A stretch of DNA of 55,492 nt, counting the filler, from Squatina squatina (lineage: Eukaryota): the NCBI GenBank assembly GCA_031763465.1. It is 3 parts of 3 records of this genome, joined end to end, with 100 filler letters (N's around TTAATTAATTAA, not from the genome) between each part and the next. Parts side by side here need not be neighbours in the genome. Positions count along the whole stretch, not along the records: positions 24,806 to 41,189 come from JARFOE010000004.1; 2 more parts are not named here. One strand, written 5' to 3'. The notes below the pieces were generated by a model, which was not told where the DNA came from, did not search any database, and saw only the letters and a program-made list of their open reading frames with translations. Shown here piece by piece: positions 24,910 through 26,325 of this stretch; the first letter of the stretch is position 1; each line of letters starts with the position of its first letter. Both the position numbers and the translations under genes were made by a program.

Positions 24910-25483
24910 AATAGAAGCATAAAACATTACAACACAGAGATAGGCCATAAGGTTCATCAAGTCCACAATAGTGTTTCTCTTCACGAATCTAATTCCATTC
25001 TCTTGCTTGATGCCTATACCCTTTAGTGTTCCTCTTTTTGAAGCAATTATTTCAATCTCTTTTAAAATAATTTACAGACTATGCTTCAACAATGGTTTGT
25101 AGCAGAGAATGTCACATTCTCTTACACTCTGCATAATTTTTTTTCTAACCTTCTCCGAATTGTTATGTGACTATCTTAGATTTGTGCCCTCTTGTTACCA
25201 TCTTGCTGACCAGTTGGAATAATCTAACAATATTTACCTTATCACAACCCATCATAAGCTTGAAGGTCTCTAATCAGGTTACTCCTTAACCTTATTACCT
25301 TTAGTGAGAAAAATCTACTCAAATCTCTCTTTGTAACTGTAACCCCACATCACTGGTGACAACTTGGCAAATGTACACCTTTCCTTTGCCTTTATATCCT
25401 CCCTATAATGAGTTATCCAAAAGTACACAATAGTCCAGTTTTGACCTAATTAAGGTCTGTACAACTCAACATTACCGCCTTTT
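24910..25483 (-). mobile_element. Old, diverged 5'-truncated CR1 directly abutting the GDF7 coding sequence
   Basis: The minus strand GTAATGTTGAGTTGTACAGACCTTAATTAGGTCAAAACTGGACTATTGTGTAC...AGGGAGGATAT aligns to the 'V.L.LY..LVRP.LEY...RKD' region of the CR1 at 18820-18920. It continues through ACAAGAGGGCACAAATCTAAG ('TRGH..K') to a tail GGCCTATCTCTGTGTTGTAATGTTTTATG. Confidence 0.85.
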
Positions 25484-26325
25484 CTATGAGTCTATGTACA
25501 AAATGCTGATGGGGCTGAGTTTGGATGGGATACAGCAGCTGGGCGGCGTGGACTCGGGGTCCATTGAGTTCATCAACGTTTGTATGATGGCATGGTTAGT
25601 GGGTTCAAGGTGGGATCTGAGCGGAAAATCGCAGATCCCTTCACAATGGTAAGCCTCGTAATCTAGAGGTGCGATGATCCAATCGTCCCAGCCCAGCTCC
25701 TTGAAGTTGACGTGAAGAGGTTTCCTGCTACATCGCGATCTAGCTTTTTTCCCGCTTCCTCTGCTGGGTCTGCTCGAGAACGCAGTTCTCCTTTTCCTCC
25801 GGCGCTTGACATTGGGTTCATGGCTGGTTTGTAGTGAATCCGATCCACCCAGCGATTTGATCTGATCTCTGATCTCCCGGAAGAGGTTTTCCCTTTTCCT
25901 CGTGTTGCTGAACGCCACCAGAAGGGCTTTTTCCTGAGGCTGGAGATCAGAGCGATTAAATCCCAAAAGTCTGGGATCTAAAGCCTCCTGGGAGTAATCG
26001 GAAATAATTTCCACATCTAAACACAGTAGTCTTGCAGTGATGTGGCTTTTCATTAATTCCCACACGTCAAACACTTGCCATTCAGATGAATCGGCGTCCA
26101 GGATGTCAACTGTCCGCGAATCGAGCCGTTTTGGTGGGTGATTTCCCAGCTCTTGGCAAGAATAAAGTAAAATCCGATACATGCTGCCTCCCCGGGACAG
26201 CGCCGCGTGCAGGTTCTCGGGCAGCTTTCGGAAAATCCTCAGCTCCGCTCCCACAAGCTGGTCGGTGATTGGCAAGTTGGAGATATCAAACAGGTATCTC
26301 TGCTTCTTCGCAAGGGAGACTCCGT
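25484..26325 (-). CDS. GDF7: GDF7 (BMP12) exon 2: prodomain C-terminal part, furin site and C-terminally truncated TGF-beta domain
   Basis: Acceptor ttttttcag|ACGGA (phase 1). Translation QRYLFDIS..LVGAELRIFR, W.VFDVW, RRRKRR|TAF, then RSRCSRKPLHVNFKELGWDDWIIAPLDYEAYHCEGICDFPLRSHLEPTNHAIIQTLMNSMDPESTPPSCCIPSKLSPISILYIDS*. RCSRKP, PLDY and LSPIS favour GDF7 over GDF6/GDF5. TAG at 25486-25484 is premature. Confidence 0.88.

Follow-up and report, generated by a model that had tools for sequence, protein, structure and literature searches.

Does Squatina squatina lack the end of a conserved BMP ligand, or is it the draft genome of this species that breaks off too early? The question is raised by a window of 55,492 nucleotides (the whole stretch of DNA analysed here, three parts of assembly GCA_031763465.1 joined end to end with filler), in which a GDF7 reading frame stops with only five of the seven cysteines of the mature domain. 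A sequence-only reading of the locus had given a recent loss of GDF7 the headline and mentioned a misjoin in the draft on the side. Our analysis indicates that the GDF7 orthologue is real and that its break is probably not present in the animal.

Structure, identity and constraint of the GDF7 gene

The gene lies on the minus strand. Its first coding exon (26992 to 27316; 108 codons plus one base) supplies the start methionine, an N-terminal hydrophobic stretch and the first part of the prodomain (tblastn: 88.7% over 106 aa to Heptranchias P0001) and is separated from the second by a GT...AG intron (26326 to 26991) that contains a 100-N gap at 26797 to 26896 and whose GT donor at 26991 and AG acceptor ending at 26326 are both in phase 1. 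The second coding exon (25487 to 26325) runs uninterrupted to ...ILYIDS, and its top protein matches are sharks, with 94% to Heptranchias and 93% to Heterodontus. Within the frame we found a prodomain (PF00688, E 6.8e-11), a basic, furin-type RRRKRR cleavage site that is conserved in the alignment (25787 to 25804, minus strand) and a mature TGF-beta domain (25487 to 25747, minus strand) with Cys1 to Cys5, the codons of which start at 25732, 25645, 25633, 25537 and 25534. Gene and promoter are covered by a CpG-rich region of seven 400-base bins (25606 to 28405, observed/expected CpG 0.76 to 1.17), six of which, from 25606 to 28005, range from 0.76 to 0.82, compared with 0.30 to 0.33 in the next two bins down and a window-wide value of 0.35. 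The bin upstream of exon 1 (28006 to 28405) reaches 1.17 and may represent promoter or enhancer sequence. The sequence-only reading had described just such an otherwise uninterrupted frame with prodomain, RRRKRR site, phase-compatible splice sites and CpG-rich promoter, and this description is borne out.

The same is true of its claim that the frame ends at IDS-TAG. The 3' end on the minus strand reads TAC ATA GAC TCA TAG, with the stop (25486 to 25484) as the first codon of foreign sequence; the Pfam TGF_beta profile (PF00019, E 1.4e-26) is matched at positions 1 to 84 of 104, Cys6, Cys7 and the last 20 residues are missing, and the predicted precursor has 388 aa versus 408 in Heptranchias. 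Of the features that mark a ligand of this family, the prodomain and the basic cleavage site are present, and the complete seven-cysteine cystine knot is absent as assembled. We found no rescue by read-through, the TAG being followed in frame by another stop after three codons, and none by splicing, the sole donor-like GT that we found lying beyond the stop. A single ATTAAA occurs downstream of the stop, at 24912. Single-sequence folding of the short mature domain, performed without an alignment, was uninformative (pLDDT 37.4).

Judged by its sequence, the gene is a GDF7 orthologue. In a midpoint-rooted tree of 33 rows, comprising chondrichthyan and tetrapod GDF7 plus GDF6 with GDF5 rows left out, the window protein falls within the chondrichthyan set (98/96), which is part of a GDF7 group of 25 rows (100/100) that is separate from the eight GDF6 rows (100/100). 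NCBI calls most shark GDF7 orthologues “GDF6-A” (proteins P0001-P0012), and the pigeon “GDF6” model P0103 clusters with bird GDF7. The window copy has its domain order in common with GDF7 of other cartilaginous fishes, represented by Pristiophorus japonicus (P0121), Heptranchias perlo (XP_067840444.1) and Heterodontus francisci (XP_067873744.1), and a CCIP variant with Pristiophorus only, one of the 17 chondrichthyan orthologues, which makes a squalomorph shark its likely source. However, every one of the chondrichthyan proteins ends in a 20-residue tail with Cys6 and Cys7, whereas the window copy ends at IDS. This tail with its two further cysteines is kept in 17 of 17 chondrichthyan orthologues, as anticipated by the earlier expectation that the family continues for about 20 residues, and a C-x-C tail is terminal in 129 of 135 proteins, the other six being partial, extended or visibly mis-modelled. 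An end at IDS or IDA was seen in none of the 155 fetched GDF5/6/7-type proteins, nor was an IDS end among the 20 matches of a search for shorter proteins, and an exact look-up of two exon-2 translations in the protein collection found them absent. A tblastn search with the last 30 residues of a fetched orthologue detected no GDF7 tail elsewhere in the window, and a metagenome scan for shark DNA downstream of GDF7 returned only two loci, 46-54% identical to the query, that are not shark orthologues. Two deviating database entries have technical origins of their own: the whale shark GDF7 model P0134 carries, past an intact tail, 31 extra residues that match a LINE ORF of the window (43% over 30 aa, E 2.6e-05) and is a gene-model error, and P0125 (Logan), a skate-type GDF7, is another technical truncation that breaks early in the mature domain and continues into a short foreign end, which we take to resemble a translated library adapter.

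As far as the coding sequence can tell, GDF7 in the window shows no sign of decay. Between RRRKRR and the break there is no change private to the window copy, and the mature part is identical to that of Pristiophorus P0121 at 87 of 87 residues; the prodomain contains 10 private changes. Over 375 columns of a four-way comparison, private changes number 10 in the window copy, 10 in Heptranchias, 5 in Pristiophorus and 16 in Heterodontus, and the difference between the window copy and Pristiophorus is not significant (p 0.30). The end branch of the window copy measures 0.034 versus 0.022, 0.039 and 0.025 for the Heptranchias, Pristiophorus and Heterodontus set (range 0.022-0.039). Because the mature part is unchanged, the branch ordinary and the CpG island kept, an old pseudogene is ruled out, while a very young loss would still be compatible with the data: zero changes at 236 replacement sites allow for up to about 1.3% neutral divergence since loss. 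We therefore reject a long-dead GDF7 pseudogene, given one lesion, no private mature-part change and a branch of 0.034. A unitary pseudogene is recognised by several disabling lesions or by relaxed constraint; here, we found a single lesion.

The repeat beyond the break and the state of the draft

Beyond the break lies an old, degraded high-copy repeat (25486 down to approximately 24905, minus strand), which to judge by a motif may be the 3' end of a CR1 LINE, followed by a unique 3' flank (24806 to approximately 24904) common to relatives X5 and X13. Data of relatives comprised 4 of 24 sequencing runs, compared over 24806-25660 only and with all contigs, the best run sharing 0.13 of words; between 228 and 641 contigs per run aligned on this interval, which indicates high copy number. 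The window itself holds a paralogue of the repeat at 30818-30973 (72.6% over 157 bases, E 9e-16). The link between the repeat and the reverse-transcriptase-bearing LINE of the window is weak at the DNA level, with a score equalled by 15 of 500 shuffles and a whole-segment score of 106.5 versus a shuffle maximum of 112, and tblastn of the window's LINE ORFs on the repeat gave no match. Other mobile-element remnants in the window are LINE reverse-transcriptase fragments at 18577-19319 (minus strand; RVT_1, E 0.0082) and 51408-51650 (plus strand; RVT_1, E 4.2e-09) and a DDE_Tnp_4 transposase fragment at 14989-15339 (plus strand; E 2.8e-08).

Contigs of relatives align across the boundary between repeat and flank: record 17 of X5 covers 24807-24942 (90.4%) and its record 18 covers 24914-25377 (87.3%), and record 9 of X13 covers 24825-25272 (82.1%). 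Below about 24900 there is one contig each in X5 and X13, and the two share their differences from the window at 24847, 24870 and 24884. The flank is shared with two of the four relatives compared (82-90% identity), X1 and X7 having holes in cover there, which are no proof of absence. Because X5 and X13 carry both repeat copy and flank, with a single contig each below about 24900, the two together form an old locus. A fresh retroelement insertion into GDF7 is rejected, since no tail follows the element and the old copy with its ancestral flank is present in relatives. The repeat copy has its own flank and did not jump into GDF7, and two separate stretches must therefore have been joined, be it through a deletion or through false joining. 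On the exon side, X1 provides one GDF7 contig over about 25488-25552 that, by arithmetic on depth bins, stops aligning at the junction; X5, X7 and X13 have no cover of the exon part and X1 has none above about 25552, where absence of cover proves nothing. No contig bridging the junction is found among the 32 aligned pieces listed (1,623 further pieces exist). At 25377, X5 record 18 and X7 record 32 both cease aligning, with 425 and 84 further letters following; a small deletion private to the window may explain this (a 7-base alignment gap lies nearby), or else a second join.

The draft itself is in a fragmented state. The window contains 44 N runs (5,199 bases), of which 27 are exactly 100 long, has a contig N50 of 1,290 bases and consists of at least three separate pieces, delimited by artificial 100-base spacers at 24706 to 24805 and 41190 to 41289 (44 N + TTAATTAATTAA + 44 N) whose core places a stop in each of the six frames. 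This core, TTAATTAATTAA, is also part of a spacer published for the merging of contigs (PMC3360785). From the stop to the end of the GDF7 piece there are 680 bases. The junction sits within one continuous contig of 1,991 bases with no gap there; a search within this contig revealed no long shared sequence at the junction, where a 6-base word is present twice, two bases apart.

Of possible neighbours of GDF7, only exons of ZSWIM6 and RECK were seen in the window, both genes presumably residing on other human chromosomes than GDF7, and no synteny partner emerged among 134 ORFs scanned against Pfam, a scan that short exons would escape. The last coding exon of ZSWIM6 (23321-24126, minus strand; PF21055, E 1.8e-33) lies beyond the spacer on a separate piece. 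A 10-N gap stands in for 24 of its codons, and at most 80 bases from a gap there are three radical changes at near-invariant sites, Y>S twice and L>R (23784, 23769 and 23631), in a comparison of 119 homologues, none of them chondrichthyan by name. These three may reflect errors in the reads or a dead copy in decay. We reject the idea that all ZSWIM6 differences are errors, because three of the nine private ones (H31, Y41 and R44) match ZSWIM5 P0136 and are probably ancestral. RECK is represented by a lone intact exon (34311-34506, minus strand; EGF2_RECK, E 1.5e-07, plus a weak Kazal match) with AG/GT sites, located 7 kb upstream of GDF7 in the piece flanked by the two spacers; tblastn with 91 homologues found no further RECK exons in the window.

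Possible origins of the junction

The gene, its break, the old age of the repeat copy and the patchy, fragmented draft all being demonstrated, what has to be weighed is how the two stretches came together. We lean, by a little more than an even chance, toward an undecayed GDF7 to which an old repeat copy from elsewhere was falsely joined in the draft, with the repeat supplying the stop; the former side option of a draft misjoin is now the leading reading, held with modest preference. A chimeric library fragment or an assembly or finishing (merging) step would have fused the two stretches where true cover was thin, and the animal would still produce a full seven-cysteine GDF7. A false join is consistent with the undecayed GDF7 and its perfectly conserved mature part, with a repeat copy that has its own flank at an old locus in X5 and X13 and no bridging piece among the 32 listed, and with a poor draft whose N runs, low N50, artificial spacers and gapped, radically changed ZSWIM6 are joined by an orphan RECK exon. 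Against it, the junction lies inside a contig with no gap there, and assemblers of short reads usually end a contig where paths branch; no long shared word occurs at the junction within the contig; and the constraint test says little about time (it allows up to about 1.3% neutral divergence; prodomain 10 vs 5, p 0.30). The ZSWIM6 oddities, moreover, are on another piece, were compared with no chondrichthyan and could mark a dead copy, and the orphan RECK exon would also suit a genome that has real dispersed fragments. The tail in all 17 chondrichthyan orthologues and the harm that GDF7 loss causes in mammals according to PMC7349246 again speak for a false join.

Several readings in which the junction is real compete with this one. 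The continuity of the contig across the junction and perhaps also the doubled 6-base word would suit a young deletion or rearrangement allele of this individual or its population, in which the last 20 codons and the 3' UTR were lost and exon 2 was set against the pre-existing repeat. Short repeated words can occur at repaired breaks, and an old repeat copy next to an undecayed gene is equally expected from a young allele. Its product, without two of the three knot disulfides, would be held in the ER, making the allele a recessive null; yet at normal depth a heterozygote should produce two alternative paths, with the contig breaking there, and such alleles would be rare in constrained developmental genes. 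Even though carriers should be viable, since GDF7 loss is recessive in cats (PMC7349246), we consider this allele unlikely. Somewhat less likely still is a possibility absent from the options of the sequence-only reading, a young, 3'-truncated GDF7 duplicate with promoter, exon 1 and most of exon 2 that came to lie beside the old repeat while an intact GDF7 resides elsewhere. The nearby orphan RECK exon would fit with such a duplicate, as would the lack of a synteny partner among the 134 ORFs (short exons would be missed), but there is no excess of changes, the CpG island is intact, and near-identical copies normally collapse, with the contig breaking at the branch.

We regard it as improbable that GDF7 was lost for good in the species or lineage, late on its branch, through a fixed deletion that fused exon 2 to the old repeat and removed two knot cysteines. 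The constraint bound of about 1.3% neutral divergence leaves room for such an event, and private prodomain changes are twice those of Pristiophorus, though not significantly so; standing against it are the single lesion, the absence of mature-part changes, the intact genes of 17 of 17 orthologues, an X1 contig that aligns only as far as the junction and the null phenotypes reported for mouse and cat (PMC7349246). The recent loss that had been the headline option of the sequence-only reading indeed gains no positive support from a gene that is undecayed and an assembly that is a patchwork. Very improbable, finally, is a short product kept for a function, either as a dominant-negative partner trapping other BMPs via Cys4 or as a supplier of free prodomain. 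In its favour are the retained prodomain, cleavage site and Cys4, the position of the stop in the last exon and the downstream ATTAAA at 24912; a dominant-negative CDMP1/GDF5 mutation exists in print (by a title in the references of PMC7658374), and the GDF6 prodomain alone is described as a CD99 ligand (PMC7688343). However, the mature part is perfectly conserved up to the break and would be unneeded for a prodomain-only role, the truncation occurs in no relative, and late GDF5 lesions share their heterozygous phenotype with prodomain frameshifts in the patients tabulated in PMC9483038.

Expected effects of the truncation and known parallels

In the BMP knot, the ring is formed by Cys2-Cys6 and Cys3-Cys7. 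With Cys6 and Cys7 absent, both ring bonds would therefore be lost and two cysteines left unpaired, and ER retention is the expected fate; the earlier structural inference that two of the three intrachain disulfides are lost was right. For comparison with human lesions we take human GDF5 to be 501 residues long, which places two of them at Tyr487 and Cys498. These are c.1461T>G (codon 487) and c.1493G>C (codon 498), which Table 1 of PMC9483038 enters under heterozygous brachydactyly C beside prodomain frameshifts; c.1461T>G should create a stop codon, with loss of the same two cysteines, but the table has it as missense. In GDF5, losing the late cysteines seems to have the effect of losing one copy. 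The truncated allele, if real, would most probably amount to a simple null, because the nearest human GDF5 lesions give the same heterozygous phenotype as early frameshifts (PMC9483038). From the earlier alternative of a null or a dominant-negative product, it is the null that these parallels favour, and the dominant-negative part is left without positive support. The human lesions are nonetheless point mutations in a paralogue that are shown in patients (PMC9483038), whereas the break in the window lies six residues earlier than c.1461T>G and is, as assembled, a repeat junction.

For GDF7 itself, PMC7349246 describes a recessive feline allele with brain malformation, c.221_227del, and cites hydrocephalus and sterility upon GDF7 loss in mice. 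The feline allele is a natural vertebrate GDF7 loss-of-function, as the window copy would be, but it is an early frameshift (89 aa product) that was confirmed by reads and genotyping and does not amount to a species-level loss (PMC7349246). False truncations in low-coverage or fragmented drafts (e.g., PMC2872876) likewise combine a single lesion and absence of decay with poor contiguity, though the break in the window, unlike those, is a join inside a contig and not a gap. In the literature, judged by titles and the starts of abstracts in a collection with most subscription journals outside its coverage, we found no account of sharks with a lost or truncated GDF7.

If the join is false, it calls for caution, as even within-contig breaks in this draft can mimic gene loss. 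An allele that is real but private would merit only modest interest. A deletion that proved both real and fixed would mean that a conserved BMP ligand has been knocked out naturally in a cartilaginous fish. Squatina squatina would then be a wild vertebrate that manages without a BMP ligand on which roof-plate and forebrain development depends in mammals, and would allow one to test to what extent GDF5 and GDF6 are able to replace GDF7.
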